From assembly GCA_015055815.1 (NCBI GenBank), contig SVHM01000002.1, positions 172,296 through 236,295 of the forward strand: a stretch of 64,000 bases of DNA, written 5' to 3'. Below are positions 18,321 through 45,464 of the stretch, piece after piece. A program made the translations under genes and the position numbers. This stretch comes from Clostridiales bacterium. Its GTDB lineage: Bacteria; Bacillota; Clostridia; Christensenellales; UBA1242. Under the pieces are notes generated by a model. That model ran no database searches. It saw nothing but the letters and a program-made list of their open reading frames with translations, and was not told the DNA's origin. Position 1 is the first letter of the stretch. Each line of letters opens with the position of its first letter.

Positions 18321-18401
18321 CTAATTAGTATAACATAATTAAACACACTTTCCAATTAATTTTTTATTAACAACATTTAAATTATTATCATATATTTAAA
18401 T

Positions 18402-19451
18402 ATGTTTAGTTTAAGTGTTTGTTTTATTATAAAAAATGAAGAAGCCACACTTGATAGAATTTTAAATCAAGTTAAAATTTTTGCTGATGAAATAATTATA
18501 GTTGACACAGGGTCTACCGACAAATCTATTGACATTGCCAAGAAATACACCGATAATATTTTTCAATTTGAGTGGTGTAACGATTTTTCAAAAGCAAGAA
18601 ATTTTTCTTTTTCCAAAGCCACAAAAGATTATATTATGTGGTTGGATGCTGATGATTATATTAGCCCAAATAATATTACTAAAATATTAAAGTTAAAAAC
18701 CCAACCAACAGACACACATGTATTTATGTTAAAGTATGTCATGAAAGACAAAAGCGGAAATACCACTTTGGAATTTTTCAGAGAAAGAATTTTAAAAAAC
18801 AGATGCGGTTTTATTTGGCACGGTTTTGTTCATGAAGTTATTACACCAAAAGGCAAAATTGAATATTTGGATATAGAAATTGAACACAGAAAAATAAATG
18901 CGGGTAACCCTAAAAGAAATTTAAATCTATACAACATAGCAAAGAAAAATGGTATTAAGTTTTCGGCAAGAGAGCAGTATTATTACGCAAGAGAATTATA
19001 TTACAACAATTACTTTCATTCATCCGAAAAAGCTTTTAAAAAGTATTTATCCTTAAATAATAAATACCCGCCAGATATAACAGGTGCGTACCTTATGCTT
19101 ACTAAAATTTATATATCAAGAAGCAGTTTCAAAAGAGCAAAAAACATACTATTTGATTATTTGAAAAAATACTCTCCCACACATGAAATTATTAACACTT
19201 TAGCATATTTATATGACATTGAAGGAGATATTACAAGTGCTATATTTTATTACAACGCTTCACTTAATTGCGAGATACAGCAATTAGGATTTGTAAACCC
19301 AGACGAATTTGCATTTATTCCCCACGTAGAACTTAGTCGACTTTATTACAAACAAGGCAATTTCGACCTTGCTAAATATCATCACAATCAAGCAAAAAAG
19401 ATTAAACCAAACCACACATCTATTATTTATAATAATCAATTTTTTAAGTAA
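18402..19451 (+). CDS. family-2 glycosyltransferase with C-terminal TPR-like repeats
   Basis: SVCFIIKNEE...IIIVDTGSTD...WLDADD motifs. Helical repeat C-terminus. No obvious SD. Confidence 0.8.
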   Translation: MFSLSVCFIIKNEEATLDRILNQVKIFADEIIIVDTGSTDKSIDIAKKYTDNIFQFEWCNDFSKARNFSFSKATKDYIMWLDADDYISPNNITKILKLKTQPTDTHVFMLKYVMKDKSGNTTLEFFRERILKNRCGFIWHGFVHEVITPKGKIEYLDIEIEHRKINAGNPKRNLNLYNIAKKNGIKFSAREQYYYARELYYNNYFHSSEKAFKKYLSLNNKYPPDITGAYLMLTKIYISRSSFKRAKNILFDYLKKYSPTHEIINTLAYLYDIEGDITSAIFYYNASLNCEIQQLGFVNPDEFAFIPHVELSRLYYKQGNFDLAKYHHNQAKKIKPNHTSIIYNNQFFK

Positions 19452-19478
19452 AAAAGCAATCATTAATGATTGCTTTTT
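19451..19478. terminator. bidirectional intrinsic terminator
   Basis: Perfect palindrome AGCAATCATTAATGATTGCT flanked by A and T runs, between convergent genes. Confidence 0.7.
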
Positions 19479-19481
19479 ATC

Positions 19482-22400
19482 TTATCCAATATCATAATTA
19501 CTTAAGTCTTTATCTGAAATTTTTGACTTCTTTACTTTTCTTGCTTTAACCACTTTTAAAGTAACAACCAAAACCCCCAATAGAACAATTCCAGCACCTA
19601 AAATTATAGTGTTTACAACAGCCTTATCCATTTTATCTTTGGTAATGAAGAACTCGCCATTTAGATTATTTGTTCTGAATACATAATAATCGCCTTCTTT
19701 TTTCATTGAAACTTCTACCCTTTCTCCATCTACTACTTGGTATAAACATGGATTTTTTATGTTCATGGCTTTTATTTTAACAGTATACACATAATCAACT
19801 TCATTGTTTACATTTTCAAACTTAAATGAAGACACAACATTCTTTTCTTCAACTGCTAAATTGCTTGCTGTAGCGACCATATTAAGAGCCTGAATAGAAC
19901 TATCAAATGTTCCTTCAACACACTCAATTATCGAATTTTCATTACTAATAGTCAATGCGTTTGCAATTTTTAAAATACCATTTGCTTCACCATCAAAATT
20001 ATTGTCTGTAACTTTTATTGTAAATTTGTATTCACCAACTTCTATTGGTTGCAAATTGTCTTCAAAAATATACATTACACTATCTTTATTTAGTCCACAA
20101 TTTTCATCAAAGTAAAATTCCGGCTCTTTCATCGTTCCATCATAAATAAATTCGTTTTCAGCTAATACAAAACTAATTTGCATTTTCTTTATCACTAGTC
20201 TTACAACAGAACTTCTTGATGGATTGTAGTTTTGATTACCTTCAAAAATTGCAACAACCGAATATGTCCCAACATTCACAGGACTTTCAACAACGCTTCC
20301 ATTTAAAGAATATTCATATTTAAGTTCAAATGGAAATTCCGAACTTAAACTTTGAACTTTACCATTATAAATTACAGTTTTACCTTCAAGAGTTGGTACG
20401 ATATCAGCTTTTACAATTTCATAACTACCAGTCGTCAAAGATGAAATATAATAATTTTGAAGGGGTTGCATATATGTTGAAATGCAGTACACACCAACAT
20501 CATTTCCGCCATCTCTAAATAATTTTAATTCTAGCGTATCATCATATTTAAGACCGTTTATAGAATATGTCATAGGAACACATTCTTCACCATATACTTG
20601 TTCTTTATCATCAATTATAATTTCAAGACCAGCCTTTAAGATTATCAATTTCCCTGAAGTAAAGTTAATATGATAATTAGAATTATTTAGAGTTCCTAGT
20701 GAAATAATATACTCACCCACATTTTCACCAATTTCTCTTTCAAGATTTCCAGTCAACAAATCTCCATCACATAAGTTTGACACAACATATTGTAAATTAT
20801 CTTCTTCGCCGTATGTTTTTGTAGTAGTTAATGCCGTTATATATAATTCTCTAGGTAATATAACATATTTACCGTTATTTACAATTAAATTATAATTTTG
20901 GCTAGATAGAGTACCTTGCGATATAACATACTCACCTACATTTTCACCGACTTCTCTTTCAATTTCGCCAGTAATTTGAGACTGGTCATAACTACCTTCA
21001 ATAGAATATGACAACTCAACAACTTCTGAATATCTAGTTTCAATATTATTAATATTTACTACTAAATCTTTTGGAAGTATAGTAAACTTAGATTTTGAAG
21101 CTAGAACTTTGTAATTTTCGTTATAATCATCTAACATTGAAATATCATAAGAGCCTACATTTTCACCAGCTACTCTTTCAAGATTTATACCAAGATTGTC
21201 TCCAGAAACAACTTCTCCCCTTAATATTTCATAAGAAAGAGTTGGGTCATTTTCGCCATAAATTTTTGATAAATTATTTATTCTTATTACTAATTGTCTA
21301 GGTTTAATTGAATAGAAATCTTCAACATATTTACATGAGTAATTATCACTTTCAAATGATACAAGATTAATCTTGTAAACACCTACATTCTCACCAAATT
21401 CTCTTGCAACAGAGTAGTTTACACTATCACCATCAAATACACCTTCAACAGAACACTTTATGTCTCCGTCTTCATATCGGTATATTTTATATTGACCAGC
21501 AAGTGCTGTTATCTTAATTTCTTTCTTTTCAATTTTTAAAACACCATTATACACACCGGTATAATTATTATTTAATAGTTTAATTTCAAATGGATAATTA
21601 CCAACAAGCATTGGTGTTCTTTCAAAAGTCACTTTATATTCAACATTATCTTCAACAGTAACTAAAATATTTTTAACGTCTTTTCCATATGTTTGTATTA
21701 AATTACTAGCAGTGATGCTTGCAAGTTTTTGTTTTATAGTAAGGTTAATATCTGAACTTTCAATTACATAATTTTTATTAAGAGATATAAACTCAACACG
21801 ATATGTACCCGCATTTTTAAAATCTATTTTATTTTCACCAATAAATGTATTTATATCATGCTCAATTTCTTCTGTTAAAGAATATTCAATTTCTTGCACT
21901 TCTTTATTGTATGTATAATCATTATTTAATATAGTAACATTTACAACTTTAGGAATAACCTTAACTACCCCTTGTCCATTTGCTACAACATAATTACTAT
22001 CAAGTGAAGTAAAAGTATAATTATAATCATCAACATCTATTAAAGTATCAATTTGCAAAGAAACATTTATGTCTTGCTCCAATTCATATTCAAATATAAT
22101 TTCGCTTCCAGTATATGTATATTGTGATACTATATTTATAATACTTATTGGTTTTGGAGAAATAACTATCTGACCGAATACATCTCCATCTAAAACAATA
22201 CTACCATCTAACGACACTATTTCATAGTCATATGTGCCAACATCTAATAAACTCTTTTCTTCTGAATTTTGAGTAATAGTTAATTGAATAAATGAGTTAT
22301 TTGTATAATCATTTCCACCTATTGAAGTAGCAACAAATAGTAAAGTATTTCCGTTTTCATCATAAATTAAATTCTTATCAACCACTTCAATTGTCACTTT

Positions 22401-25124: not shown

Positions 25125-28100
25125 TCTTCTTCTCTCCTTTTGTAAATTTGTACACTTTGCGTAGATACAGTTTGTACACTACTTGTATCTATTAACAATG
25201 CCGAATTAATACCTTCAGCATACGTATCTCCATTTGAATGTTCTACAACAATATCTGGAACACTTTCTCCTTCATTATAAATTCTAAATACATATGGGAA
25301 ACTTGCATTTGTAGGAACTGACTGACCCATTGACGAAACTGTGTACGACTCATCTATTTTAAGCCCCAACAAATCTCCCGCTTTAGAAACTGTATAGGTA
25401 AGATTAATACTTTGGAAACTATCTAAATCTTGTTCAGGAACCATGAATTTCATTTGTCGCTTATAATCTTTATATGTTTCTTCATTTGCATGATCAAGTT
25501 TAAATGTAAATGTAAAACTATCTCCGTTATCGGCTATGTTTTCAACTGATGAGATTGTATTACCCGCATATTCAGTTGCGCCTTTCTTTTTGTCTACACT
25601 ATTTAAAACCATCACATATGGATAAAAACCATCGGGGTTAGTTCCAAATTGTGTAAAATAATTTTCTTTTGAAATATCTGTCCAACTTAAAGATGAATAA
25701 TCGGCAGTTCTATTTGACTTCACCACATCACCAGATGCTCTCATATATTGAAGTTCGCCATTCTTTTCATCATAATATGCAAGGAATGCAACTCTTGGGT
25801 CGACTGTTATTAAACCTGCAATATCAATCTTTTTTCCATAATTTAAGTTTTGAATTATCCTTCTACCCAAACTATCTTTCTTATAAATTATCCTTGTTTG
25901 TTGCGCATCTGCAAATTTAGTAGGAACAACTGCTCCATCAACATATACTTGATAAGCATAAGCTTTTGATAACTTTTCATATCCTAACATTGTTAAGTAA
26001 TATAGATAATGAATATTTTCAATTTGATTATCTATATTTTTAATCATCGCAGTATTTACAGTTCCAATATTATATTCAAAAAGCACACTATCATTTTCAA
26101 GACTTGCTTTGATATTAACATCTCCACTCAAACCATCAATTGTATAACTTCCATTGTTATCAGAAATAGCTTTCTTTCCACCAGCAGAAATTATCGCCCC
26201 AGAAACAACTAAACCACCTTTTGTAGTTACGGTACCCGAAACTGAATAAACTTCTTTTACTGTAACCATTCTAGTTTCATTACAAATAATACTTCCAACA
26301 TTATCTTCTATGAAGGTATATCCCAACTTATTGTATGTTATAACCGTTTCACCCGAACAATTTTCTATTGTTACCACTTCTTGCGAATAAGTTTTATATA
26401 CATTATTTACCCCAACTCTAACATTGTTATAATCTCCACCTTGGAATTTTATCACAATAGAATATGTCATATTTACATTTAAACTATTCGAATAACCAGT
26501 AATATTTTTTACTTCAGCATTATCATACCCATCAGCCAAAATTGTTAAAGACACAACTCTATCAAGTCCAGATAATGTATAACAACCATTACTATCAGTA
26601 AGAACTTCTACACCAGTTGAAGATATTACCCTAGCCCCTGCAATTTTTATATTACCAGTTGCAACAACCCCACTTATCGAATAAGTAGCTTCAACGTTTA
26701 AATTAGCATTTGTGTTAACAAAAATTTCTTCACCAAAATCGTAACCAACTTTACTAAATTCGACATATCCTTCTTCGGTAACATTAACTAGTTCAAAGTA
26801 ACCAGAATTATTCGTTCTACTAGAAACATCTCCCAATGACACGTCTACACCCGAAACAGGAATACCATCAAGTATTACATAACCCTTTACCGTAAACATT
26901 GCTGAAACATAAATTTCTTCTGCTTTATTTATTGTAATATCATTAAACTCAAAGTTTTCTTTTGAAATAGTTAAAAGGCACTCACCACTCAAACCCGAAA
27001 TTTCAAACTCTCCAAGATCATCTGTAATAACAGTTTTGTCTCCTACCGTTATTACCGCACCTGCTAGACCACTACCAGCACTAACAACCCTTCCTGAAAT
27101 TGTATAAGTTGTTGAAATGTTTATTTCTTCAACGTATAAACCAAATGTATACTCACCCAAGTCATAACCGTCTTTTGAAAGAATATACTTATCTCCAGCA
27201 TATACCTTTTCCAATAAGCCTTCACCCATCTCATTTGTAAATAGTTCATAACTACCGTATTTAATTTTTACACCTGAAAGGTAAATACTTCCCGTTTTAA
27301 CAATAATCTTAGTTGAGTAATATCCGTTAAAATCTACTTGAGAATATTCACATACTTTGACATCTTCCCCAAAGACATAGCCATTTAAACTAACAGATAT
27401 TTGAGCTTCACCCGTCAAACCAGAAATCTCATATGCCCCATTAACTGTTTGACAAGTTTTTCCTTGAGCAGAAACAACCACACCATCAAGAGAAACACTA
27501 CCGCTAGTAACCTTACCAACAACCTTATACGAACAAGTAAAGTTTACATCATAATTTAAATCAAAAGTTTCATCAACTTGTAAATTATTATTGTCAAACA
27601 CATACCCATTTTTGCTAAGAAGTACAACACATGGTTTTGTAATCAAGTCAAACACATACTTTCCATCTTCATCAGTAATCGCTTCATTATCTCCCGCTTT
27701 CACAACTACATCAGCAACAGGTATTCCCCCAGAAGTAACAACACCACCAAACGAATAACCATTATCAGCAAAGTTGTAAACTCCACCTTTATCAATAGTG
27801 TAAGAAGATGGCTTTAGTACTATATCAGTATTCTCATCATATACAACAATATATTCGCCACTCAAGTTTTCAAAAATGTAACATCCGTTATTATCTGTAT
27901 ATGCCACACTTTCTTCACCAGTATCAAGCGATATTAAAATTATTTTAAAATTAGTTAAATTTCCATCAGCCGTTTCAACTTTTCCAGTAATACTATATGT
28001 TCCATAAGTAGTAATTTCCGAGTTAGAAGAAACTGTCACACTGTTAATAGCAAAATAGTCTTTTTCAAAAGAAAGTTCAACTTCACCAGAAAGTCCAACC

Positions 28101-29851
28101 AATTCAAATTTACCGTTTCTATCAGTTAAGCACCAAATATTTCCACTAGAAACTTTAACACCAGCAACTGAATAATCTCCACATAAAACTTGACCCTTTA
28201 CAGAATAAGTCATATTGACATTTATATCACAATTATTTACATCATAATCTAAAACGCAATCATCATAACCTTCACACTTAACAGTCATTTCTCCATCAAG
28301 ATACAAATCTTCTAGCGTTAAAATTCCCATTGTATCAACTGGATAGGTAACTTCACCAATTATCACTTCTGCATTTGGTAAAATTATATCACCACTTTTC
28401 ACAGTTACACTCAAATTGAAGATTTTATTAGGCTCAATATCAAAATTACAACTTCTAAAATTGCAACTCAAACTTTCAAAAACATATCCATCTTTTCGAA
28501 GTTCAATATCCATATCACCATGTAAATTTTGTAAAGTTATTGCTCCACCTACAACATATTCTTGTCCACCAATATTAGCATTAACTTCAAGACGATTACC
28601 AGCATAACAAACATTTAATGTTAAATCATACAATTTTTCTAGTTCTACAAATAAATCATCACTACTTAAAAGTGTAACTTGCGGAGTTTTTACATAATAA
28701 CCAGCATATTCAAATCCCAATGTCTCACCAAGTTTACAATTATCTACCATAAACTCTGACCTTGTGCAATTTATAACTTCTTCACCATGAGTAATGTTTA
28801 ATCTTTTGCTTCCATCGTCGCAGACAAACGAACCATTTAAATCAAAAACACCATCAATAATTGCATTTCCACTATCACTAACAACTAATTTATCAAATTC
28901 AAACTTGCCATTTACAAAAGTCAATTCGTTATTACCATGCAACTTTTCAAGTTTATAATCATTTCCAACTGCAACAAAGTTACTATTTCCATTTACACAA
29001 ATAGCAGTTCCATTAATAGGAATACTTCCACTAACAAAAGACAATTGGTATGAATAATACTTTTCACAATTAAACTCAATCTTTTGTCCTTCTTGAGATA
29101 TTTTAATAGCATTACCGTTTATAAAATAATTATCACTAGCAAGGGTTAACACATCACCACAATAAACATTAGCCACTTCAAATGTTAAATCATCATTAAT
29201 AATAATCGACTTATCATTCAATTTTAATGCAAAATCACTAGCACTTGCTTTTTTATCTGTAACAACTTTACCCGTAATAGTAGTAGTTCCAGACACAACC
29301 AAATCATCATTAGTAATATCAAAAGTTTGCCCGAAAAATTCAGTAGTTTCACTAATAACTTCAATAGAAACTTGACCAGCAAGAGTTGGAAGATAAAACT
29401 CACCAAAATCGTTCGTAGTAGTTGTAAACGTTCCCGCTTTGCTTGAAACACGAATAGTAGCATTTGCAATCAAATTACCGTTATTTTCAACTATACCATG
29501 CTTATCAAAAATTTTGTAACCATTAAAGTCAATCTGTTTATTATCAAAGTTGGCAAATTGAATATTGTTCTCAATTAAGTATCCGTCTTTTACTGCAGAA
29601 ACTGACGACACATCTGTAAGACCATTTACGACATAATATCCTTTGCTATCGGTAGTAGCAGTACCAACATCACAAGAAATTGTTGCACCTTCCAAAGGCA
29701 AGCCATCGGCATAAACGTAACCAGAAAAAGAATATGTTTCAACTTCTTTAGGAGTTAGAAACACAGCCTTCACATAAAACAAAACCCCAACTAATAACAA
29801 AATTGGAATTAAAATACTCAAAGAAATTTTTAACGCTTTTTTCTTTTTCAT
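25121..29851 (-). CDS. giant secreted/anchored protein (about 1576 aa) with more than 12 CarboxypepD_reg-like beta-sandwich repeats and an unassigned 450-aa C-terminal domain
   Basis: Repeats of the type Y.I.GKV...G.P..GV.V......T...G.Y.L..L.GE..L...K.GY.F. The track ORF starts at 29899, but the Met at 29851 (MKKKKALKISLSILIPILLL) gives a signal/anchor and has a GAAGGA RBS. Confidence 0.8.
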   Translation of the reverse strand: MKKKKALKISLSILIPILLLVGVLFYVKAVFLTPKEVETYSFSGYVYADGLPLEGATISCDVGTATTDSKGYYVVNGLTDVSSVSAVKDGYLIENNIQFANFDNKQIDFNGYKIFDKHGIVENNGNLIANATIRVSSKAGTFTTTTNDFGEFYLPTLAGQVSIEVISETTEFFGQTFDITNDDLVVSGTTTITGKVVTDKKASASDFALKLNDKSIIINDDLTFEVANVYCGDVLTLASDNYFINGNAIKISQEGQKIEFNCEKYYSYQLSFVSGSIPINGTAICVNGNSNFVAVGNDYKLEKLHGNNELTFVNGKFEFDKLVVSDSGNAIIDGVFDLNGSFVCDDGSKRLNITHGEEVINCTRSEFMVDNCKLGETLGFEYAGYYVKTPQVTLLSSDDLFVELEKLYDLTLNVCYAGNRLEVNANIGGQEYVVGGAITLQNLHGDMDIELRKDGYVFESLSCNFRSCNFDIEPNKIFNLSVTVKSGDIILPNAEVIIGEVTYPVDTMGILTLEDLYLDGEMTVKCEGYDDCVLDYDVNNCDINVNMTYSVKGQVLCGDYSVAGVKVSSGNIWCLTDRNGKFELVGLSGEVELSFEKDYFAINSVTVSSNSEITTYGTYSITGKVETADGNLTNFKIILISLDTGEESVAYTDNNGCYIFENLSGEYIVVYDENTDIVLKPSSYTIDKGGVYNFADNGYSFGGVVTSGGIPVADVVVKAGDNEAITDEDGKYVFDLITKPCVVLLSKNGYVFDNNNLQVDETFDLNYDVNFTCSYKVVGKVTSGSVSLDGVVVSAQGKTCQTVNGAYEISGLTGEAQISVSLNGYVFGEDVKVCEYSQVDFNGYYSTKIIVKTGSIYLSGVKIKYGSYELFTNEMGEGLLEKVYAGDKYILSKDGYDLGEYTFGLYVEEINISTTYTISGRVVSAGSGLAGAVITVGDKTVITDDLGEFEISGLSGECLLTISKENFEFNDITINKAEEIYVSAMFTVKGYVILDGIPVSGVDVSLGDVSSRTNNSGYFELVNVTEEGYVEFSKVGYDFGEEIFVNTNANLNVEATYSISGVVATGNIKIAGARVISSTGVEVLTDSNGCYTLSGLDRVVSLTILADGYDNAEVKNITGYSNSLNVNMTYSIVIKFQGGDYNNVRVGVNNVYKTYSQEVVTIENCSGETVITYNKLGYTFIEDNVGSIICNETRMVTVKEVYSVSGTVTTKGGLVVSGAIISAGGKKAISDNNGSYTIDGLSGDVNIKASLENDSVLFEYNIGTVNTAMIKNIDNQIENIHYLYYLTMLGYEKLSKAYAYQVYVDGAVVPTKFADAQQTRIIYKKDSLGRRIIQNLNYGKKIDIAGLITVDPRVAFLAYYDEKNGELQYMRASGDVVKSNRTADYSSLSWTDISKENYFTQFGTNPDGFYPYVMVLNSVDKKKGATEYAGNTISSVENIADNGDSFTFTFKLDHANEETYKDYKRQMKFMVPEQDLDSFQSINLTYTVSKAGDLLGLKIDESYTVSSMGQSVPTNASFPYVFRIYNEGESVPDIVVEHSNGDTYAEGINSALLIDTSSVQTVSTQSVQIYKRREEE

Positions 29852-30046
29852 ATGGACGTCCTTCAATTTATATATAAATTGTACTACATATTTCGACATT
29901 TTTCAATCTCTATTTTAAGAACAGTTTAGTAGAGCCCACTTCTACAAAAATGACACCATTCTCACAACTCTCATCTTTGTAGAATTTTGTAATTTTTTAT
30001 TTTCAAAAGTCTTGCAATATTAAAAAAAATAGTATAAAATATAATT

Positions 30047-30631
30047 ATGGAAGATATTAAAAAAATAATCGCTAACAACATTAGCAATCTAAGAAAAGAA
30101 AACAAATTAACACAATTAGAACTTGCTGAAAAGGTTAATTATTCAGACAAAGCAGTGTCTAGATGGGAAAGGGGTGAAACATTACCAGACATAGACATAC
30201 TTTTGAAATTGTGCGAACTGTTTAACGTTAAATTTGAATATTTAATTTCAGAAAATCCAACAACCACAATGAAATCAAAGCCAACAAGAGCAGAACTTGG
30301 CAACAAATTAACCATTACCCTACTTGGCGTATCACTTGTGTGGTTTTTGGCAACATTTATTTATGTATATTCGGGAATAATTTTTGACACAAGTGCATGG
30401 AAGATATTTATATGGGCAATTCCCGCTACATTTTTTGTTGCTGAAGTATTTAATTTTTTCTGGGGAAACAGAAAAGTTGGTGTACTTTTAAATAGCGGGC
30501 TTGCATGGACACTACTTACCGCAATATACATCCAATACCTATCTTATAACATGTGGTTAATATTCTTACTAGGCATCCCAATTCAAGTATCGTTAATACT
30601 TTGGGGAAACCTAAGACCAAAGAAAAAATAA
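30047..30631 (+). CDS. XRE-family HTH regulator fused to a 4-helix membrane domain
   Basis: N-terminal LRKENKLTQLELAEKVNYSDKAVSRWERGETLPDID HTH. The C-terminal half is hydrophobic. No SD upstream. Confidence 0.85.
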   Translation: MEDIKKIIANNISNLRKENKLTQLELAEKVNYSDKAVSRWERGETLPDIDILLKLCELFNVKFEYLISENPTTTMKSKPTRAELGNKLTITLLGVSLVWFLATFIYVYSGIIFDTSAWKIFIWAIPATFFVAEVFNFFWGNRKVGVLLNSGLAWTLLTAIYIQYLSYNMWLIFLLGIPIQVSLILWGNLRPKKK

Positions 30632-30770: not shown

Positions 30771-30846
30771 GCTGATGTGGCACAGTCGGTAGCGCACCGC
30801 CTTGGTAAGGCGGAGGTCACGGGTTCAAGTCCCGTCATCAGCTCCA
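30771..30846 (+). tRNA. tRNA-Thr (anticodon GGT)
   Basis: Cloverleaf folded by hand. Acceptor GCTGATG/CATCAGC. Anticodon arm CCGCC-TTGGTAA-GGCGG. T arm ACGGG-TTCAAGT-CCCGT. Encoded CCA. One A-C mismatch in the D stem. Confidence 0.9.
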
Positions 30847-31097: not shown

Positions 31098-31382
31098 ATG
31101 GAAAATTTTGAATTATTTGATGCTTTAATAAGCAAAACTGAAAAAGAAATAAAAAGCACCACAAGAAAAGTAAACAGTTTGGAAGTTAAAGATTACATAA
31201 CTTCTTCTTTGTCTTATGATTACAGCGATTTATTTAGCACACCCAAAACAACACACCATCAATCAAAATTAGTTAAAGCAAATACACCATCAAACACAAC
31301 TCAACCCGAAAGCGCAAATTCAATTGATGTAAAAACTTACATTTCTCAAAAATATTCACAAAATGAATTGGAAAGGAAATAA
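31098..31382 (+). CDS. hypothetical small protein (94 aa)
   Basis: AAGGAGA RBS. Stop lies 2 nt before the next start. No recognisable motif. Confidence 0.55.
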   Translation: MENFELFDALISKTEKEIKSTTRKVNSLEVKDYITSSLSYDYSDLFSTPKTTHHQSKLVKANTPSNTTQPESANSIDVKTYISQKYSQNELERK

Positions 31383-31384: not shown

Positions 31385-33316
31385 ATGTCAGAAAATCCAC
31401 TACACATAAGCCTTGATACTCAATTTCTTGTAAATTTTATTTTGGGCTCAGAATATATGCAAAAAGCACTTGAAAAAGCAGAAAGCAAATATTATTCAGC
31501 CAAATATGTTACCAATAGGCAACACCAACAAGAACAAAATACAAAATCTCTTAAATTTTATTTATCCCATTATATTTATCTTAAATTTATTGAAAAACTA
31601 GGAAAAGAAGGAAAAATAAAAATCAATATTACTCCACCAGCAATGAGCGAAGTATTGGCAGAAGGAAACTATATTGATAATGTAATTTATAACATATATA
31701 GATACGCACATAGAGATAGACCAATTAGAGATATTATAGATGCAAAAACTATAAATGGAATAATAGATAATTTAAATATTTCACAAGACGAAAAAGAAGA
31801 ACTTAAAAAACTTTATACAGGTCCTATATCCAAATCTTACACATCCGTGGAATTTGACGACAACATCAGTCGTAGCAATAATATTTTAGGAAACAAACTA
31901 CTACAACCACATTTAATCAAACTTCTTAAAAAACACTATATAAAAACACAACTTGAACAAAATCATAACATGTTAGACTTGTTGTCATTTCCACAATTTG
32001 ACAAAAACACAAGCAATCCCCTATGCGATATGATGCTTGAACTTTCTGAATTTTATAGAAACGACCCACAAATAATTGTGGACAACGAAGTTCAAAGCGG
32101 AATACCAGCAGAGGAAATTACAGACAGTGTTATTATGGCTTGTTGTTCTCTACTTAGCATGCCTTTACTTACCGGCGACTACAACGGATTAGTAAATCAC
32201 GAAAAGGCAATTGATGCAGAAAATGAAAATTTCAAAAAAATCAAAGGCAAACAAACAATTGTCAATAGCAAACCATTTTCTTTAAAGCAATTTATTGCAG
32301 ACTTTTTTAAAGAAGACTTCCTTGCTTGGATAGATGATTTTGCAATACCATCAGAAATAAGCGGAATAATTACACAAGAAATTAAAGATAGTTTTAAAGA
32401 AGAAATATCTAATATCGAAACTAGAGATTTAACACATAGAAAAACACCATCTTGCAAAGAAAATAGAGAAAAGTTTCAATTTTTATATTCAAAAGCAATA
32501 AATTCTCAACACGTATTAGTTAATTCTGTTGAAGAAATGGAAGAAGAAGCCAATGAAGAACTTTATACAAAAACTAAAGGTTTTGTTCCAGCAGTAAGAA
32601 CACATCTTCATCAAAATGACTTAACAATTATGCTTCATTATCTTCAATTATTTGACCAAAAAAGAGACAATCTAGAACTTCTAACTATTGGACGCACAAG
32701 AGATAAAAACGGAAATATTACTACTTTAAAAAGCCAACCAACAGCAACTCAAATTGCTCAAATTTCACAAGACACATTCTTAACTTTAACCGCTACAATT
32801 CAAGCAATATTTAATCAATTTTATGGTGTGAGAATAACAGAAATTGACGGAAGAATACTTATGAAGTTACATCAAATGGGCTTTGCATTTAAGACTACAC
32901 AAGATAGAAAAATTTGCGCAATTAATTATAACGGAATTCAATTTACCCAATATTCTTCACAAGAATACCCACAAAAGCAATTAGAATTTATTTACAATCC
33001 TAATGATTTAACACCAACAAGCATTGTTTTGCTTGCAACAAACCCCGCAATTCTTCAATTTTGCGACAAACGAAATCTTTTAGGCAAAGACTTAATGGAA
33101 CATTATAGAAAGTTTAAAACAGCAAATAACATTTATGGAGAATTGTATACACACCCAAGTGAATTTTACGCTTTAAGTCAACAATTAGCACACCTTCATG
33201 AAAATTCACAATCAGATGATATAGATAAGAATATGCAAAAATTATTAGAAAATAACAAACTTATACTATCGCTTAATTATCTACATTATCCCGACCCATC
33301 TAAATATTTAGCATAA
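31385..33316 (+). CDS. hypothetical 643-aa protein with possible split PIN-like N-terminal domain
   Basis: GGAAAGGAAA RBS. N-terminus ISLDTQFLVNFI, and later EITDSVIMACCSLLSMPLLTGD, resemble the first and last acidic PIN motifs but are about 250 aa apart. The rest is unassigned. Confidence 0.7.
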   Translation: MSENPLHISLDTQFLVNFILGSEYMQKALEKAESKYYSAKYVTNRQHQQEQNTKSLKFYLSHYIYLKFIEKLGKEGKIKINITPPAMSEVLAEGNYIDNVIYNIYRYAHRDRPIRDIIDAKTINGIIDNLNISQDEKEELKKLYTGPISKSYTSVEFDDNISRSNNILGNKLLQPHLIKLLKKHYIKTQLEQNHNMLDLLSFPQFDKNTSNPLCDMMLELSEFYRNDPQIIVDNEVQSGIPAEEITDSVIMACCSLLSMPLLTGDYNGLVNHEKAIDAENENFKKIKGKQTIVNSKPFSLKQFIADFFKEDFLAWIDDFAIPSEISGIITQEIKDSFKEEISNIETRDLTHRKTPSCKENREKFQFLYSKAINSQHVLVNSVEEMEEEANEELYTKTKGFVPAVRTHLHQNDLTIMLHYLQLFDQKRDNLELLTIGRTRDKNGNITTLKSQPTATQIAQISQDTFLTLTATIQAIFNQFYGVRITEIDGRILMKLHQMGFAFKTTQDRKICAINYNGIQFTQYSSQEYPQKQLEFIYNPNDLTPTSIVLLATNPAILQFCDKRNLLGKDLMEHYRKFKTANNIYGELYTHPSEFYALSQQLAHLHENSQSDDIDKNMQKLLENNKLILSLNYLHYPDPSKYLA

Positions 33317-33372: not shown

Positions 33373-34635
33373 TTAATCTGCTAATTCGTAGTTATCTAAA
33401 TTTAAAATTTCATCTTTTGTAACATGTATAACCTTACCAAAATATGGCTTAAAGTCAGTATTATCATAAACTATCCAATATAATTTTTTTATACTTCTAT
33501 TGTAATCGGTATTTGTAGCAGTGTCGTACCCATCTGTAAATATAATTTTATTTACACTTTTATCTTTACTAAAACCCCTTAAGGCATTATCAAAACTTGT
33601 TCCACCCCTACCCATAATTTTGAAGTTATCTATATCTTGTATAGTTTTTATATCTACAAAATCGTATGTTCTATGGTCAAAACAACAAACTCTAATTTCA
33701 CTTTCTTTAAGCAGATGTTTTAATTGTCTCAAAAAACTCATTAGCAAACCAGAACTTACCGAGCCACTTGTATCCAACATCACTTCAATTTGCGGTTTAT
33801 CTTCATTTTCTCTATATTCTATTCTTGCTTGATAATCATTATCTTCTTCAGCTCGCCTATACGACCACCTATCTTCTTCTTTTTCAATTTCTCGCTTAAG
33901 TATCTTCTTCCAATTTACAGATTTTTGCGTCTCACCAACACTCCCTAACGATAGCAATTGATTGCCAGACTGTTTTCCAACTTTATTTTTACTTTCTAAA
34001 TTACTTCTTATTTCTTTGCCTAATTCTTTTTTTAGTTCGCTATTTTTTTCTGCAAAACTTTCTTCATCTAAAGTTTCTATATTTTCCTGACCGACCAACT
34101 CCCCATGTCCGCCATCTTGCTCTAGGGAAGTTTTATTTTTAGCATTTTCTTCCCACATTCCATGCTCGCCAATATCTCCGCTTGCACCATCTCCAGAATT
34201 ACTATTAAATCTTCTACCACTATTTTCTTCAATTAATTTTAAATAAACATTTTCAGCCGATTTGCCAAAAGCATCTTCCATATCTATGCCACATTTAGGC
34301 ATTGGTAAATGTTCATGCTTTAAAATTTGATTTATAACAGCATCAGTAGCGACATTCCAAAGTTCACTTTCTTTGCCTTGACTTCTTTTCAAATGCCCAA
34401 AAGCAACATGCATAATTTCGTGAGAAAAAAGGAATATCTTTTCATCATAACTAAGACTACTTAAAAAGTCTTCGTTATAATAAACAACATTTCCATCCGT
34501 TCCGGCTGTATCTACTTTATCTGACGGCTGAAATTGTAAGCCAGAAATGGTAGCACCTAGGGCTGGAAATTTTCTCAATACTCCACTTATATATATTTCG
34601 TGTTTTTTATCTTGTAAATATTCAAAATAATTCAC
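33373..34635 (-). CDS. HExxH metallopeptidase-like domain fused to a VWA domain (DUF2201_N + DUF2201/VWA-like architecture, names from memory)
   Basis: FSHEIMHVAFGH zinc motif near the N-terminus. Acidic/Lys-rich linker. C-terminal VWA with intact MIDAS MLDTSGSVS ... GGTSF ... IIFTDGYD. Confidence 0.8.
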   Translation of the reverse strand: MNYFEYLQDKKHEIYISGVLRKFPALGATISGLQFQPSDKVDTAGTDGNVVYYNEDFLSSLSYDEKIFLFSHEIMHVAFGHLKRSQGKESELWNVATDAVINQILKHEHLPMPKCGIDMEDAFGKSAENVYLKLIEENSGRRFNSNSGDGASGDIGEHGMWEENAKNKTSLEQDGGHGELVGQENIETLDEESFAEKNSELKKELGKEIRSNLESKNKVGKQSGNQLLSLGSVGETQKSVNWKKILKREIEKEEDRWSYRRAEEDNDYQARIEYRENEDKPQIEVMLDTSGSVSSGLLMSFLRQLKHLLKESEIRVCCFDHRTYDFVDIKTIQDIDNFKIMGRGGTSFDNALRGFSKDKSVNKIIFTDGYDTATNTDYNRSIKKLYWIVYDNTDFKPYFGKVIHVTKDEILNLDNYELAD

Positions 34636-34689
34636 TTAAAACTCCACATCATAGTTAAATGCTTTTAAACACCTTTCGTAATTTTAATG

Positions 34690-37200
34690 TTACATACTTC
34701 TACTAGGAAGCAATTTTTTATAGCCATATTCTTTGACTAGTTTTTCAAACTCTTGCTCAGATAGGTATTTAGAAAAATCAATTTCTTCAAAGGTGTACAT
34801 TTTTAAATCTTTTTCTTTTAGTGCATAGAAATAATCGCTAAACATCCCTTCGTTCCAATAACAAGTTAAGTTTTTATGAGTATCCCAAACATCTCGATTT
34901 ACATATGATTGACCAGTACTCCACTTCAAACCCATTCTATCCATTACCGTACATAACACGTCCGACTTCCATTTTTTATCACAATGAATTGCTTTCTTTT
35001 GTCCAATATCGGCAAAATCATCTATTGAAAGGGTATATGTATCTTTCTTTTTAAATAACGTTTTTCTCTTTACCGTTTTTTGCTCGGGAGAATTTACAGA
35101 CAAAGTTTCAACATATATTGCTCTTTCGTCATCATTTCCGACCCAAACATTATCAAATGTAGCAAGAATTTCACTACCCAGCCTATCCCCAATAAAATCT
35201 CTCACAACAGGCAAATCTTCAAAGCCAACACTTCTTAACGACAATGCCAAAGCATACTTTGAGTCAAACGACACAGGAATATCTTCATTTGAATAATTAC
35301 CAGAAATTACATCTTCTAAAGATATAAGCGGTGTTTTAGCAAAAGCCATGAATGAAGCCGAAATTTCCTTGCCTACTTTATTTTCAATTAATTCTTTTGC
35401 GATTTTACCTTTGTTGTCATAAATAATATCACTAACCTGCTCCCAACCACGTGGGTCAATTGCATAGTCTTTCGGATTGTCACTATCATAAGGCGAATAG
35501 AAAACTTCTTCGCCATACGCACTAACAAAAGCTGAGACTATTGGATGCACTTTTGAATAACCCGGCCTTTCTTCGCTTTCTTCACTTCCCCACTCAACCC
35601 AACTTTGAATATCCGGTTTTAAGTAAATATGCGCATCATATCTTCTAAACAACGGCTCTGGCATATTATATGCCGCTTCACTTTCACTCTTACTATTTCC
35701 CGCAGACACAACAACTGCATTTTCAGGTAGTTTACCAATATTAGGACCAATTGAGTTATTGAGAACTAAATGGAACACCAAACTTTGTTCACTTGGCCTA
35801 ACGTTTGTTATTTCGTCTATAAACAACACATGATTTTTATCTGGCTCATTTTTACATTTATTACAAAGTTCTTCATACCATGCTGGTGGCACCCAAATAC
35901 CCACTTTCGTTTTATCATTATTTGGATATATAGTCTTACCAATCACTTCTTCTGGAAGTATTCCATTTCTAAGAACTATCGAAACATACTCTGGGTCAAT
36001 TTCTTCAATTCTTCTAGTCTTACCTATTCCACTAGGCCCATGCAACATAAATGATTTTCCATGCTCGATATAAAATCTAATTTGCTCATTTACATCCATT
36101 GGCTCTTCTTCAACTTCTACCGCATACTTACCTTGAGACTTAGTTGTCCTTTTAGTTGACTTTACTGGCAAAGTATCTTCAATCATCATGGCATCGGTCA
36201 AAAAACTATTTCCCTTAGAAAAATCTCCGCCACCATAAATACCCATAGATTTTGAACCATTTTTCTTAATGTTATTAACATTGATGCCGTTTAAAATTCC
36301 CCTAACGGTTGAATTTTGCCACAAGCAATTACCACTTTCATCACTAGGATGATATGGAACACCCGACAAAAGCCCACTATCCGCTTTCATTTCTAGATAA
36401 AGATCTTCTTCACTTCCAAGTGGGTTTATATATTTAGGAAGATTATCCCAATTCAAAACTCGCCACTTTATTGGCTCTACTGCTACCCAGTAGTTTTTAT
36501 CTTTTTCTATTTTCTGAATTTTGCCATCAATTACAATACTTCTATCATCATATTCACTCTTTATCCTAACATACCTTCTACCTTCAAATTCATATTCTGG
36601 ATATGTTATAAGACCTGCACTTTGAGAATATTTGCCAATATATTTCTTTCCCGTCTTTTTAATTTTCCCACTTTCAAAAATTCTTTCAAGCAAATTATTC
36701 TCAACATTACTTACAGCCGATTGTGGAAACTCCCCAAATGTAACTGTGTAGCTTCCCCTTGGTTGCTTTTGGACTTTAAACAAATGCGGATAATCACTTC
36801 TCAAATTTTCAAAGTCTTCAGCATGAACACTTATTCGTGGAGCAATAGTCGTCCAATCAGCATTGGGATTAAGACCTACCGTTACAGTTCCAGTAGCGGA
36901 CACTTGAAATATACTTGAGATGTTATCAAAATCGGAATAAGTACTTCTAAGTGGTGCAGTTCCTACAAGCCCACCTTGTCTAGTTGTGTAATTTTCTTCA
37001 ACATGAGCACCATTTAAAATAGCGTAAGCAGTAGGAAAAACAAGCCTATTACCAATAGTCAATACATCAGCATCTCTAACACTGTCGATAAAAACTTTGT
37101 CGTGCGTCTCCAAATTATTTCTTTCAAATCCGTTTAAATCATAATTATAAACATTTGACGAATCAATTTGTTTACTTAAGTCTATCATCATTTTACTCAT
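34690..37200 (-). CDS. MoxR/AAA_5-type AAA+ ATPase (836 aa) with long N- and C-terminal extensions
   Basis: Walker A LHGPSGIGKT, Walker B VLFIDEITN, sensor VVSAGN, PEPLFRRYD. N-terminal about 370 aa contains FGEFPQS ... YWVAVEPIKWRVL ... WQNSTVRGILNG (DUF6273-like motif set, name from memory). Confidence 0.8.
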   Translation of the reverse strand: MSKMMIDLSKQIDSSNVYNYDLNGFERNNLETHDKVFIDSVRDADVLTIGNRLVFPTAYAILNGAHVEENYTTRQGGLVGTAPLRSTYSDFDNISSIFQVSATGTVTVGLNPNADWTTIAPRISVHAEDFENLRSDYPHLFKVQKQPRGSYTVTFGEFPQSAVSNVENNLLERIFESGKIKKTGKKYIGKYSQSAGLITYPEYEFEGRRYVRIKSEYDDRSIVIDGKIQKIEKDKNYWVAVEPIKWRVLNWDNLPKYINPLGSEEDLYLEMKADSGLLSGVPYHPSDESGNCLWQNSTVRGILNGINVNNIKKNGSKSMGIYGGGDFSKGNSFLTDAMMIEDTLPVKSTKRTTKSQGKYAVEVEEEPMDVNEQIRFYIEHGKSFMLHGPSGIGKTRRIEEIDPEYVSIVLRNGILPEEVIGKTIYPNNDKTKVGIWVPPAWYEELCNKCKNEPDKNHVLFIDEITNVRPSEQSLVFHLVLNNSIGPNIGKLPENAVVVSAGNSKSESEAAYNMPEPLFRRYDAHIYLKPDIQSWVEWGSEESEERPGYSKVHPIVSAFVSAYGEEVFYSPYDSDNPKDYAIDPRGWEQVSDIIYDNKGKIAKELIENKVGKEISASFMAFAKTPLISLEDVISGNYSNEDIPVSFDSKYALALSLRSVGFEDLPVVRDFIGDRLGSEILATFDNVWVGNDDERAIYVETLSVNSPEQKTVKRKTLFKKKDTYTLSIDDFADIGQKKAIHCDKKWKSDVLCTVMDRMGLKWSTGQSYVNRDVWDTHKNLTCYWNEGMFSDYFYALKEKDLKMYTFEEIDFSKYLSEQEFEKLVKEYGYKKLLPSRSM

Positions 37201-37233: not shown

Positions 37234-37262
37234 ATTATACTATATTTAAAAACCAATTTCAA
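37234..37262 (-). promoter_or_regulatory. sigma-A-type promoter for the AAA+/VWA operon
   Basis: Minus strand: TTGAAA (37262-37257), 17-nt spacer, TATAAT (37239-37234). GGGGA RBS before the ATG at 37200. Confidence 0.5.
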
Positions 37263-37284: not shown

Positions 37285-37314
37285 TCAAAAAAACGCCCAA
37301 AATACGAGCGTTTT
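37285..37314 (-). terminator. weak intrinsic terminator after uvrC
   Basis: Minus strand: AAACGC-tcgtattttgg-GCGTTT followed by T7. Confidence 0.45.
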
Positions 37315-42773: not shown

Positions 42774-42815
42774 TAAAAAAAACTGTATTACAATTGTAAT
42801 ACAGTCTATTTTTTA
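42774..42815. terminator. intrinsic terminator after the GLUG lipoprotein gene
   Basis: 24-nt perfect palindrome ACTGTATTACAATTGTAATACAGT flanked by A8 and a T-run. Confidence 0.7.
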
Positions 42816-45464
42816 ATTACTTTTATAAGTTAAATATAATATGAAGTTTTCACCCGAATTATCATCAACATAACTTGTTATATGAGACAAATCAAATCTA
42901 AATGAATATTTCTTCTCAGGCATAATAAGGGTAAATAGAACATATCTTAATTTGTTAACGCTAGTCTCTTCTTCTCCTTCAGTAGTTGTAGTATCACCGC
43001 TTATAACGCCGTCTTCAGTTATTTCCTGTGAGAATTGATTATATCTATTTACAACAACATTATCAGCATTCAAAGCAAAGTTTTTTGCTAATGTACACTT
43101 TATAAAACTAATAAACAATTCCGAATACTCACCAAGTAAAACTTCTGCCTTATCTTCTTCACTCTCTTCGCCATCAGTAGTTTCTTCTTCATCTTCTTGA
43201 ATGCCAGCTTGACCGCTTTGTTCTTCTACTGGAGCATCACCATTTCCGCCTTCTTGAGTTGTATCATCTGGAGTAGGAGTTTCTTCATTTCCTTCCGATC
43301 CACTACCCATAATGTCTTCAATAACATAGTCAAGAGTTGCCATATTATCAAAACAACTTCTATTAAATACAAGAGCCGTATCAGTTGATACATTTTTTTC
43401 GATTAAGTTCACAAAGAAACTTAAAAGCTCATCTGTATAATTAACTTGAACATTACTATCTGCACCTTGTTTTAATTCAAAGAATTTATCAAAGTTATCA
43501 TATATATTATTTTGTTTCTTAGTTGTAAAATAACCAAGTCGTGCTTTTTCTTCGTCAAGAGTAAATTTAATTTCTTCAACTTTTTTAGAATACAAATCTA
43601 CTTCATCTATTCCAGCGCCACACTTAAAACCAATATTGCTTCTAAAGAAAGGTACAAAACCACTTGCCACAAGATTTTTGGTAGATATGCTTGAATAATC
43701 CGGCACAGGATAATCATTATCTATAGCACCGTCTACCTTAACGGTATTTTTGTATTTTTTATAAACAATACCTTCTTCTGTATTTTCCCAATCATCTGAA
43801 ACAACATAAATTGATTTAAATATTTGCGGAGCAACAACTGTATAATCAATTGTCTCCGTTACCGTATCATCGTCTTCTTCACCTTCTTCTCCAACTGATG
43901 GGTCTACAGTTGTATTTATAGTTCCCCAGCTAAATGGATTTCCAAGTCCATAATTTAAGGAAACATCCATAGCTCCGTCACCATCAATAATATTCTCACC
44001 CATTACAATAACACCTTGCATATGCGGTGCTTTATACGCTGAATATGTCATTTTATCATTTGGATTTCCACCAACAGAACCAGAAGAGTCTGTTTCAAAC
44101 TTAGTAAGAGTTCCAACCCAAACACTAGCTTTTCCTTCAATTGTTGTATTATCAATATTAATAGGGGTATATACTACTGCAGACTTAATATAACCATATT
44201 CGGTAATACCTATCATATTAGAAGCAGTTGTTGATACAGAGTTAACAACATTAATACTTCCCCTACTAATGATATTATCAAAAATACCGAAGTGATTTTT
44301 TCCACAAATACCGCCTAATGTTGACACACCAGCATTTTTGATATCAATCTTTGCATCACTTGTACAGTAATCAACAATACCGCCATCATTATAACCAACA
44401 ATACCGCCTACAACTATAGGATCGTTGTCTATTCTACCAAATTCATAATCGAAAGCAATATTTGCGTCAGTTTTACAGTTTCTAAGTTCCGCCACCAAGC
44501 CATTCTTTCCGCAAATTCCACCAATATAATAGCCATTTCTACTACTTATTGGTCTTACTCTTGACATTAGTTTTCCAGTAGATGTACAAGTAGACATAAA
44601 GCCATTATTTTCACCCACTATCAAACCAACATTTGCAATATATGACGACAATTCATCAATTACAACATCACTATTACAATTATATGCAGTTGCTCCTTTA
44701 TTAAATGTAGAAACAACTCCACCAATATTGGTTTCAGTATTAACAGACGCATATTCATCCATGGTAATTTTACCATAAACAGTAATATCACTAAGAATTT
44801 GTGTTGATTGCTTATCTAAAACATTACCTTCGCCACTAAGTCCAAACTTAGAAATATCTCCCGAACATAATGAAACGTCTAAACTAGCACTACTTCCGCC
44901 CGCTTTCTTTATTAAATCAAGCCAGCCTTTAACTTCAATATTTTCAATCTTTAAAGTATTAACAAACGGACTAATTGTTGTCTTGCCAGTATTTTCAAAA
45001 GTGTACGATTGTTTACCCATGAAAATTCTTAAATCATATACGGCATTACCATTATAGAAAAGGCTGTTAACAATGTCGTTACTATCACCAGTTGGAACTT
45101 GCGCCAATTTAAAGTTGGTAATGTACTTATTATTTCCATAAAGTGTACCATTTTTTAAATTAATAGCAATTGCTTTGCCACCACAGTCGATATTTTTCGT
45201 AAGTTTATACGAAGTTGGAGTATCTCCCGCTTCTTCTATCTTCTTTGCAAGATCATCCAGACTTGATACTTCTTGAACATTCGCATCTTGAATAACTCTA
45301 GTTGATGGATCAGCCTTTTCATAAATAGTTTCCCATGTAGAAATAACTTGGTCACCATCAAGGTCAACAGACACCCTATCATTATTTTTACCACACGCAA
45401 AAAGAGATGTTGTCATAAACATCAACATTATACACAAACAAATTTTTTTCCAAAATTTCATCAT
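42813..45464 (-). CDS. surface lipoprotein with GLUG-motif repeats and an acidic low-complexity linker
   Basis: Lipobox SLFACG. Repeated GGICGKN / GGIVGYNDGGI / GGICGKNHFGI (GLUG-type). Glu/Asp/Thr-rich tract near the C-terminus. Confidence 0.75.
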   Translation of the reverse strand: MMKFWKKICLCIMLMFMTTSLFACGKNNDRVSVDLDGDQVISTWETIYEKADPSTRVIQDANVQEVSSLDDLAKKIEEAGDTPTSYKLTKNIDCGGKAIAINLKNGTLYGNNKYITNFKLAQVPTGDSNDIVNSLFYNGNAVYDLRIFMGKQSYTFENTGKTTISPFVNTLKIENIEVKGWLDLIKKAGGSSASLDVSLCSGDISKFGLSGEGNVLDKQSTQILSDITVYGKITMDEYASVNTETNIGGVVSTFNKGATAYNCNSDVVIDELSSYIANVGLIVGENNGFMSTCTSTGKLMSRVRPISSRNGYYIGGICGKNGLVAELRNCKTDANIAFDYEFGRIDNDPIVVGGIVGYNDGGIVDYCTSDAKIDIKNAGVSTLGGICGKNHFGIFDNIISRGSINVVNSVSTTASNMIGITEYGYIKSAVVYTPINIDNTTIEGKASVWVGTLTKFETDSSGSVGGNPNDKMTYSAYKAPHMQGVIVMGENIIDGDGAMDVSLNYGLGNPFSWGTINTTVDPSVGEEGEEDDDTVTETIDYTVVAPQIFKSIYVVSDDWENTEEGIVYKKYKNTVKVDGAIDNDYPVPDYSSISTKNLVASGFVPFFRSNIGFKCGAGIDEVDLYSKKVEEIKFTLDEEKARLGYFTTKKQNNIYDNFDKFFELKQGADSNVQVNYTDELLSFFVNLIEKNVSTDTALVFNRSCFDNMATLDYVIEDIMGSGSEGNEETPTPDDTTQEGGNGDAPVEEQSGQAGIQEDEEETTDGEESEEDKAEVLLGEYSELFISFIKCTLAKNFALNADNVVVNRYNQFSQEITEDGVISGDTTTTEGEEETSVNKLRYVLFTLIMPEKKYSFRFDLSHITSYVDDNSGENFILYLTYKSN

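Follow-up and report, generated by a model that had tools for sequence, protein, structure and literature searches.

The window analysed here is a 64,000-nt stretch of contig SVHM01000002.1 from the Clostridiales bacterium assembly GCA_015055815.1, and all coordinates without a locus name are positions in it. It is chromosomal DNA with a G+C content of about 30%, and was found to carry a two-gene operon on the reverse strand (Table 1). The first open reading frame (ORF) encodes an 836-aa protein in which a lectin-like N-terminal module is fused to a predicted AAA+ ATPase of the MoxR class, and the second, co-directional and separated from the first by 54 bp, encodes a 420-aa partner that combines a putative zincin peptidase with a VWA domain. 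GenBank has an identical copy of the 836-aa protein as MBE5757821.1, which is annotated only as a hypothetical protein from a metagenome-assembled genome (MAG; Clostridiales bacterium). The highest Kyte-Doolittle mean over 19 residues was 1.09 for the 836-aa and 0.97 for the 420-aa protein, and as neither contains a hydrophobic segment, neither is expected to have a signal peptide or a transmembrane helix. A first-pass annotation, made from the sequence alone, had likewise reported no signal peptide for the fusion protein, and both ORFs and every motif that it quoted were found where it had placed them.

Table 1 Features of the lectin-ATPase operon in the window, with examples of the mini-AAA gene from related loci. 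VR, variable repeat; MIDAS, metal-ion-dependent adhesion site.
Feature	Coordinates	Strand	Basis and remarks
Lectin-ATPase fusion gene, 836 aa	34690..37200	(-)	Permuted DUF6273 module, MoxR-type AAA+ and optional C-terminal domain, as predicted
N-terminal module, aa 1-345	36166..37200	(-)	Predicted circularly permuted DUF6273 (reported to be C-type-lectin-like); Pfam matches of homologues, permutation test, AlphaFold2
VR-equivalent stretch, aa 82-124	36829..36957	(-)	Mapped from the VR of the relative P0007; not diversified in the window lineage
AAA+ module, aa ~367-700	35101..36102	(-)	Family conservation, PHROG match, AlphaFold2/Foldseek; includes helical lid/extension
Optional small alpha/beta C-terminal domain, aa ~721-836	34693..35040	(-)	AlphaFold2 model; behind a disordered linker
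Partner gene, 420 aa	33373..34635	(-)	Putative zincin peptidase and VWA
DUF2201_N putative metallopeptidase domain, aa 21-261	33853..34575	(-)	Pfam E 7.7e-30; HExxHxxxxH at 72-81
DUF2201 VWA-like domain, aa 285-405	33421..33783	(-)	Pfam E 2.7e-14; MIDAS D288-x-S290-x-S292 and D368
Promoter-like site TTGAAA-17-TATAAT	37234..37262	(-)	11/12 positions, 34 nt 5' of the ATG; consensus match only
Terminator-like hairpin and T-run after uvrC	37290..37314	(-)	10-bp stem with 4 GC pairs and a T-rich tail; bounds the operon upstream
Mini-AAA ORF, examples from related loci	L004 10205-10615; L008 8193-8597; L009 9313-9726; L006 8499-8873; L010 3479-3889		

In the AlphaFold2 model aa 1-345 form a single compact body (pLDDT 92, pTM 0.88). 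PDB sequence searches with this module gave no match, and whether its order was native or permuted, the window sequence did not match the DUF6273 profile (PF19789) even at E<=10. In contrast, many of the 189 homologues of the window protein, which are mostly 700-1190 aa long and come from Clostridia MAGs, have precomputed PF19789 matches, and 20 of the 61 aligned family members matched the profile at E<=0.01 (best E 1.1e-7); the gathering score of 23.5 bits was exceeded by several, among them P0003 (32.3 bits), P0011 (31.6 bits) and P0014 (31.0 bits). Since the homologues that pass are 32-34% identical to the window protein over aa 1-345 while the window protein does not pass, the latter belongs to DUF6273 only by transitive homology. 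The first-pass annotation had called the module DUF6273-like from the motifs FGEFPQ (155-160), EPIKWRVL (242-249) and STVRGILNG (297-305); this is right for the family, through its homologues, but the window sequence itself stays under every Pfam threshold.

The order of the DUF6273 elements in these proteins is unusual. In the homologues aa ~5-120 align with profile positions ~55-171, namely the C-terminal two-thirds of DUF6273, and the motif W..S.(V/I)RG(I/Y)LNG, from the N-terminal part of the profile, sits downstream at aa 294-305. When aa 140-345 were placed before aa 1-132 and the product was rescored against DUF6273, the score rose in all four homologues so treated (for example from 32.3 to 38.7 and from 20.8 to 28.1 bits) and a single contiguous match to profile positions 26-171 was obtained, which indicates, by profile comparison, that the module is a circular permutant of DUF6273. 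The Pfam match of P0005, which has two tandem modules, spans the module junction, as expected for such a permutant. Tandem lectin modules also precede the ATPase in P0010, P0012, P0020, P0022 and P0025, and two tandem ATPase modules occur in P0024, P0026 and P0062. An exhaustive search of 1.84 billion cluster representatives disclosed 749 relatives of the module; many are stand-alone proteins of 330-470 aa in which it starts at residue 2-30, leaving little or no space for a signal peptide, and one is embedded in a protein of 4282 aa.

The ATPase motifs GPSGIGKT (388-395), VLFIDE (458-463), SAGN (499-502) and FRRYD (518-522) supply the Walker A lysine K394, the Walker B residues D462/E463, sensor-1 N502 and the arginine finger R519/R520, and R584 is a candidate sensor-2. 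These residues, together with G391 and G393, are invariant or at least 90% conserved across the 61 family sequences, and all are present in the window protein. Pfam profiles of the MoxR class, AAA_3 (PF07726) and AAA_5 (PF07728), were matched at E<=0.01 by 40 and 46 of the 61 members, respectively, and the AAA_5 gathering score was passed by some (P0066, 24.9 bits; P0011, 22.7 bits), while the window ATPase is sub-threshold (AAA_5, 15.5 bits against a cut-off of 22; E 0.018). Its aa 367-656 matched PHROG 1297 'ATPase' (E 6e-36), and PDB sequence searches with the 836-aa protein and the family profile gave a marginal match to CbbQ only (E 0.039). A Foldseek search of the PDB with the AlphaFold2 model of aa 361-836 (pLDDT 88) returned NorQ hexamers and NorQ-NorD(VWA) complexes as best matches (E 1e-7), followed by CbbQ and McrB. 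The helix-2 insert and pre-sensor-1 hairpin of the MoxR fold have counterparts in a beta-hairpin at aa ~422-437 and in a short hairpin ahead of strand 4, both being read from predicted secondary structure only. The ranking of NorQ and CbbQ, together with the catalytic residues conserved in 61 members, points to a MoxR-class AAA+ ATPase, in keeping with the original assignment.

The ATPase is larger than the aa ~380-560 first allotted to it, as the region that is conserved in the family and shared with phage proteins reaches from aa ~367 to 656-700, with aa ~553-700 forming a helical lid or extension that is common to the phage proteins. Thus, of the 270-aa C-terminal extension previously left unassigned, the first part is a conserved lid and only the terminal alpha/beta domain of ~115 aa (aa ~721-836) is still without a Pfam family; a word-index homology search with this domain gave no matches. 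Only a minority of relatives have this domain, with 2-3 copies in P0002, P0008 and P0028.

The partner protein scored well above the Pfam cut-offs for both of its domains (DUF2201_N, 104.9 against 23.2 bits; DUF2201, 53.8 against 26.4 bits), and a PDB sequence search with it gave weak matches to the minigluzincin MJ1213 only. The residues H72, E73, H76 and H81 of the HEIMHVAFGH motif, and D288, S290 and S292 of DTSGS, are invariant in 55 of 55 relatives, and D368 is invariant or nearly so; the intact HExxH and MIDAS noted in the first pass are thus conserved across the family.

A scan of genome contigs with the single protein gave no relatives, and an alignment-based scan gave 79 loci from species-representative genomes, the ORFs of which were labelled by iterative profile searches. 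The lectin-ATPase fusion is not peculiar to the window: it was found in 64 of the 79 loci, and the ATPase without a lectin module in L040, L074 and L078. A peptidase-VWA gene was present in 42 and a further small gene in 40 of 60 assessed loci, and a reverse transcriptase (RT) gene lay upstream in 14 of 46 (roughly 30%). The usual order is an optional Avd gene, template repeat (TR) and RT gene, then lectin-ATPase, a small ORF of 116-160 aa and peptidase-VWA. The small ORF has no Pfam family and its alignment covers the ATPase from Walker B to sensor-1, without the P-loop (consensus ...LvIdGlD..EQ.KF.gLLK...KLP..vQIv...); from this alignment it is read as a degenerate AAA-like subunit, here called mini-AAA. 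The idea that it had become fused as the C-terminal domain of the window protein was rejected, as it does not align to aa 700-836 and as both occur together in L012 and L013.

The hosts are gut and rumen MAGs labelled Clostridia, Christensenella, Lachnospiraceae and Eubacteriales, together with a large group labelled 'Alphaproteobacteria'. Some single MAGs have 3-5 paralogues of the cassette, and its insertion site among housekeeping genes varies from locus to locus. The 129 immediate neighbours, scanned with Pfam and PADLOC, are heterogeneous and mostly housekeeping genes with scattered defence-like matches; defence-like and phage-like neighbours are present without clear enrichment, which bears neither for nor against a role in defence. 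In PADLOC-DB v2 the window ATPase gave only a P-loop match to DolB (17.4 bits, aa 384-406) and the partner gave no match. Two ATPases with arrays of stand-alone lectin modules are found in L010, L021, L023 and L024, where the order is peptidase-VWA, two lectin modules, mini-AAA, two lectin-ATPases and two lectin modules (L010 833-10332; ~5350-16100 in L021, L023 and L024); the L010 cluster adjoins a DpnII-type restriction-modification system and an SMC-like ATPase.

DUF6273 is a recurrent C-lectin-like target of diversity-generating retroelements (DGRs), with the variable region at the C-terminal end of the domain (PMC10743442, PMC11792537, bioRxiv 10.1101/2024.10.15.618418), and the relatives of the module include DGR variable proteins, so that the term extracellular-style, applied to it at first, does not simply hold. 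In locus L004 an RVT_1 gene lies immediately 5' of the gene for P0007, which is 53% identical to the window protein over aa 30-700. An unbiased repeat search of L004 disclosed a 111-nt pair with one copy 5' of the RT gene and the other in ATPase codons ~78-115, and all 21 mismatches are at adenines of the upstream copy, the TR. Avd and RT genes were found upstream in 16 loci, namely 15 of the 79 and L004, with the RT gene directly 5' of the ATPase gene in 15 and ~6.6 kb away in L089. By Pfam the RT is RVT_1 (4e-16, 1e-19) and Avd is bAvd-like (4e-4, 1e-5), the latter below cut-off. With neutral scoring a TR/VR pair was detected in 16/16 of these loci; it measures 39 nt in L055 and 96-120 nt in the 15 others. 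The Avd and RT genes flank the TR, and the VR, which in most cases follows the TR at a distance of ~1.6 kb, lies within codons ~53-121 of the lectin-ATPase gene. Over the 16 loci, TR adenines account for 264 of the 286 TR/VR mismatches, compared with an adenine content of 31% (P~3e-107).

Variation between close relatives follows the same pattern. The six full-length members of the P0007 cluster (>90% identity) differ from P0007 at 19-43 positions, 11-14 of which fall within aa 86-107, and the RT-less P0033 cluster has no change in the corresponding region. The adenine mismatches and this concentrated variation together indicate, at the level of sequence, that the lectin-ATPase family is a DGR target. 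The VR is near the N-terminus rather than at the usual C-terminus because DUF6273 is circularly permuted. In seven of the 16 DGR-linked MAG loci (L037, L041, L044 at 9865-9974, L055, L066, L082 and L089) the target ORF is broken exactly at the VR, and these breaks probably arose when a heterogeneous VR population was assembled into one consensus, and are unlikely to mark true pseudogenes.

The ATPase and metallopeptidase-VWA genes on their own form a common phage module, phrog_1297 with phrog_1314; the first-pass annotation had allowed for a phage pair without recognising this one. INPHARED holds 150 phage records with the ATPase and 367 with the partner, from N4-like, rV5-like and jumbo phages, IMG/VR holds 66 loci, and the peptidase-VWA gene comes immediately after the ATPase gene in 52 of 68 viral loci. 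The phage pair has the same gene order as the window operon; its ATPases align with aa ~340-700 at 23-32% identity, and its partner has the same DUF2201_N and DUF2201 architecture, at 87-97% length coverage and 24-30% identity. The phage ATPases, of ~350-400 aa, differ in having neither the lectin module nor the C-terminal domain, and all phage matches to the window ATPase start at aa ~336-388, none entering the N-terminal module. No lectin-ATPase fusion was found in 50,697 phage genomes or IMG/VR, and the phage loci contain no separate mini gene and no DGR. From these absences the cellular family looks like a phage-type two-gene core that has gained a lectin module and a degenerate additional subunit, with a DGR as well in some of its members. 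A 'MoxR-vWA pair with an N-terminal metallopeptidase' was described in group 2.2 jumbo phages, with a proposed role in virion assembly (Iyer et al. 2021, PMC7824862); the function of the pair is only predicted. The metallopeptidase-VWA protein is labelled 'HNH endonuclease' in PHROG 1314 and many GenBank phage records (NC_068555.1 55662-56717; PQ805430.1 16878-18044, which is L002 2884-4050); given DUF2201_N and DUF2201 with HExxH and MIDAS, this is probably a propagated mis-annotation.

Among characterised systems, NorQ-NorD, CbbQ-CbbO and RavA-ViaA share with the window operon the AAA+ fold class and an adjacent VWA partner with MIDAS, and a hexamer with VWA docking would be expected by analogy; unlike it, they have no fused ligand-binding domain of this kind and no peptidase on the partner, and they serve fixed clients (nitric oxide reductase, Rubisco and others). 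No characterised MoxR system has the fusion seen here, as had been suspected, and the N-terminal region is not a standard MoxR accessory domain. The closest parallel in parts is provided by vWA-MoxR(-VMAP) ternary conflict systems with DGR-diversified C-lectin sensors, for which a sensor-transducer-effector logic has been proposed (Kaur et al. 2020, PMC7159879; Dore et al. 2024, PMC10907252). The parts are shared: in both, a DGR and a hypervariable lectin-fold domain occur together with a MoxR ATPase, a vWA protein and a peptidase, and the targets in those systems are predicted to be cytoplasmic. There, however, the lectin or FGS domain is on the vWA protein or stands alone and MoxR is a separate gene, whereas here the lectin is fused to the ATPase; a trypsin- or caspase-like peptidase is on VMAP, whereas here the zincin is on the vWA protein and there is no VMAP; the VR is C-terminal, whereas here it is N-terminal through permutation; and the hosts are multicellular cyanobacteria and proteobacteria, not gut and rumen Clostridia and 'Alphaproteobacteria' MAGs. 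No VMAP-type third gene is present at the window operon, which is flanked by two ORFs without a Pfam match (E<=0.1) on one side and by uvrC on the other.

Gut-phage DUF6273 targets of DGRs (tentaclins, Mtd-like; PMC10743442, PMC11792537) have the same Pfam domain, an AAY-rich TR and a VR that ends at the 'RP(A/D)L' end of DUF6273, as the family does, but they are virion receptor-binding or decoration proteins with immunoglobulin-like domains, while the present module is predicted to be permuted and cytoplasmic and is fused to an ATPase. As a working analogy only, McrBC also has an N-terminal recognition domain on an AAA+ protein of the same structural clade (Foldseek E ~2e-6) and a separate effector activated by the ring; McrB differs in being a GTPase whose target is modified DNA and which works with a nuclease, McrC, as effector, and there is no homology beyond the AAA+ core. 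The proposed coupling of AAA+ to zincin also resembles FtsH in its logic.

With slightly more confidence than doubt, the operon is interpreted as a cytoplasmic ligand sensor coupled to a MoxR motor and a peptidase effector, and probably serves in conflict, the structural and evolutionary part of this reading being much firmer than the functional one. The ATPase would form a ring, presumably a hexamer, displaying six lectin modules, on which the partner would dock through its VWA/MIDAS domain, as NorD does on NorQ and CbbO on CbbQ. The lectin modules would capture a protein or other ligand, and binding, together with ATP hydrolysis, would be coupled to remodelling of the ligand or its cleavage by the zincin; the outcome would be ligand-directed proteolysis, most plausibly of invading elements. 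This mechanism is drawn from the behaviour of known MoxR-VWA pairs and from the published proposals for DGR-lectin sensors (PMC7159879, PMC10907252). Hypermutation of the binding loop in relatives argues for ligands that evolve fast and are probably foreign, and the finding that DGRs rewrite the binding site in about one related locus in three is suggestive of an intracellular sensor that can be programmed. A bolder and rather doubtful version, offered tentatively, would make the whole family a programmable intracellular targeting machine of unicellular gut anaerobes, in which a DGR-rewritten lectin receptor on a MoxR unfoldase or remodeller feeds its ligands, such as phage proteins, to a VWA-tethered zincin, as an 'antibody-guided' ATP-dependent protease or an immune sensor derived from a captured phage chaperone module, with the window copy as a descendant of fixed specificity.

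The phage kinship admits another origin, in which the cassette is a domesticated phage assembly chaperone or maturation protease that would still fold and process structural proteins, as proposed for phages, and the lectin module is a client adaptor for a prophage, a particle resembling a gene transfer agent (GTA) or a cell-surface assembly, with no part in immunity. The closeness of core and partner to phrog_1297/phrog_1314, their adjacency in viral loci, the virion-assembly role proposed by Iyer et al., and the receptor-binding nature of the gut-phage DUF6273 targets would all suit it, as would Bro-N/HTH (helix-turn-helix) neighbours in L004 and the L032 cassette downstream of a GpJ-like tail protein. 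It is nevertheless considered unlikely, as the phage databases searched contain no fusion protein, most loci, the window included, lie amid housekeeping genes with no phage structural genes near, the protein is cytoplasmic by prediction and has no features of a virion protein, and even in N4-like phages the pair sits among replication genes, not structural ones. A housekeeping maturation system of the NorQD, CbbQO or CobST type, inserting a cofactor into, or reactivating, one enzyme bound by the lectin module, would fit the best structural matches, NorQ and CbbQ, and the adjacent VWA partner with intact MIDAS, which is the hallmark of such systems. This explanation was rejected as the main one, whether cobaltochelatase-like or NorQD-like, and is very improbable: no conserved client gene stands beside the cassette, the neighbours differing by locus; the distribution is patchy, with several paralogues in some MAGs; the partner has a conserved peptidase that characterised maturation systems lack; and DGR hypermutation of a binding loop would make no sense for a single fixed client.

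It could also be asked whether the window cassette is an inactive remnant that has lost its DGR and its mini-AAA subunit. Within the 64 kb no RT homologue was found, nor any TR-like repeat matching aa 82-124, a degenerate 'VR base or A' pattern having matched only itself; the 54-bp gap (34636-34689) leaves no mini ORF; the VR-equivalent has diverged, with 'APLRST' in place of the family 'WLRS'; and the N-terminus no longer matches Pfam DUF6273. Yet both ORFs are full length, every catalytic residue is intact, and the operon has its own strong promoter-like site behind a terminator-like hairpin. An identical protein is present on 15 contigs, and one variant fragment has four substitutions (R74S, I94V, V100I, S101T), of which three are conservative and none is DGR-like, so that no hypervariation was seen in this cluster. 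Moreover, ~70% of assessable loci have no nearby RT, and three other loci also have no mini gene. A remnant is therefore quite improbable, and from the intact catalytic residues of both proteins the window copy is read as a functional member of fixed specificity.

For the interpretation as a ligand sensor with a MoxR motor and a peptidase effector, the general combination of a DGR-diversified lectin sensor with MoxR, vWA and a peptidase is already known from comparative genomics of multicellular bacteria. The direct fusion of a permuted DUF6273 to a MoxR ATPase, the zincin-VWA partner combined with a mini-AAA subunit, the N-terminal VR downstream of the RT, and the occurrence of such a system in unicellular gut anaerobes appear to be undescribed in the searchable literature. 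The gut microbiome is where DGRs reach their highest density, and the gut targets described are nearly all phage receptor-binding proteins or surface adhesins. If the interpretation is true, the idea of a hypermutated antigen sensor would extend from multicellular cyanobacteria and proteobacteria to unicellular gut Clostridia, with an architecture that is far simpler, at two or three genes, and within reach of reconstitution, and it would give a first functional handle on the MoxR and metallopeptidase-vWA pair of hundreds of phage genomes. The DGR-linked relatives would serve as natural libraries of binding loops, and the window copy as a fixed variant for ligand fishing.

A few further observations concern neighbouring genes. 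In L032 the DGR-linked cassette lies between the GpJ-like tail protein (Phage-tail_3, FNIII-A_GpJ; 2938-5172) and an SNF2 helicase with a Type III restriction enzyme (13979-19723), and these surroundings could be a prophage, GTA or defence neighbourhood. In the window, two adjacent ORFs of 94 aa (31098-31382, +) and 643 aa (31385-33316, +) converge on the partner gene and adjoin tRNA-Thr(GGT) at 30771-30846; they had no match in Pfam (E<=0.1), NCBIfam, PHROG or PADLOC, are confined to the lineage of the window among 90 loci, and may be lineage-specific cargo. Just upstream of the tRNA, a 194-aa protein (30047-30631, +) has an HTH_3 (XRE-type) domain at its N-terminus and several hydrophobic segments after it, and is a membrane-anchored, transcription-factor-like protein. 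Tandem, very large ORFs of 1880 aa (19482-25124, -) and 1592 aa (25121-29899, -) combine an N-terminal hydrophobic segment with faint CarboxypepD_reg-like repeats, and a lipoprotein-like ORF of 883 aa (42813-45464, -) has a faint Glug match; all three probably encode cell-surface proteins unrelated to the lectin-ATPase operon.

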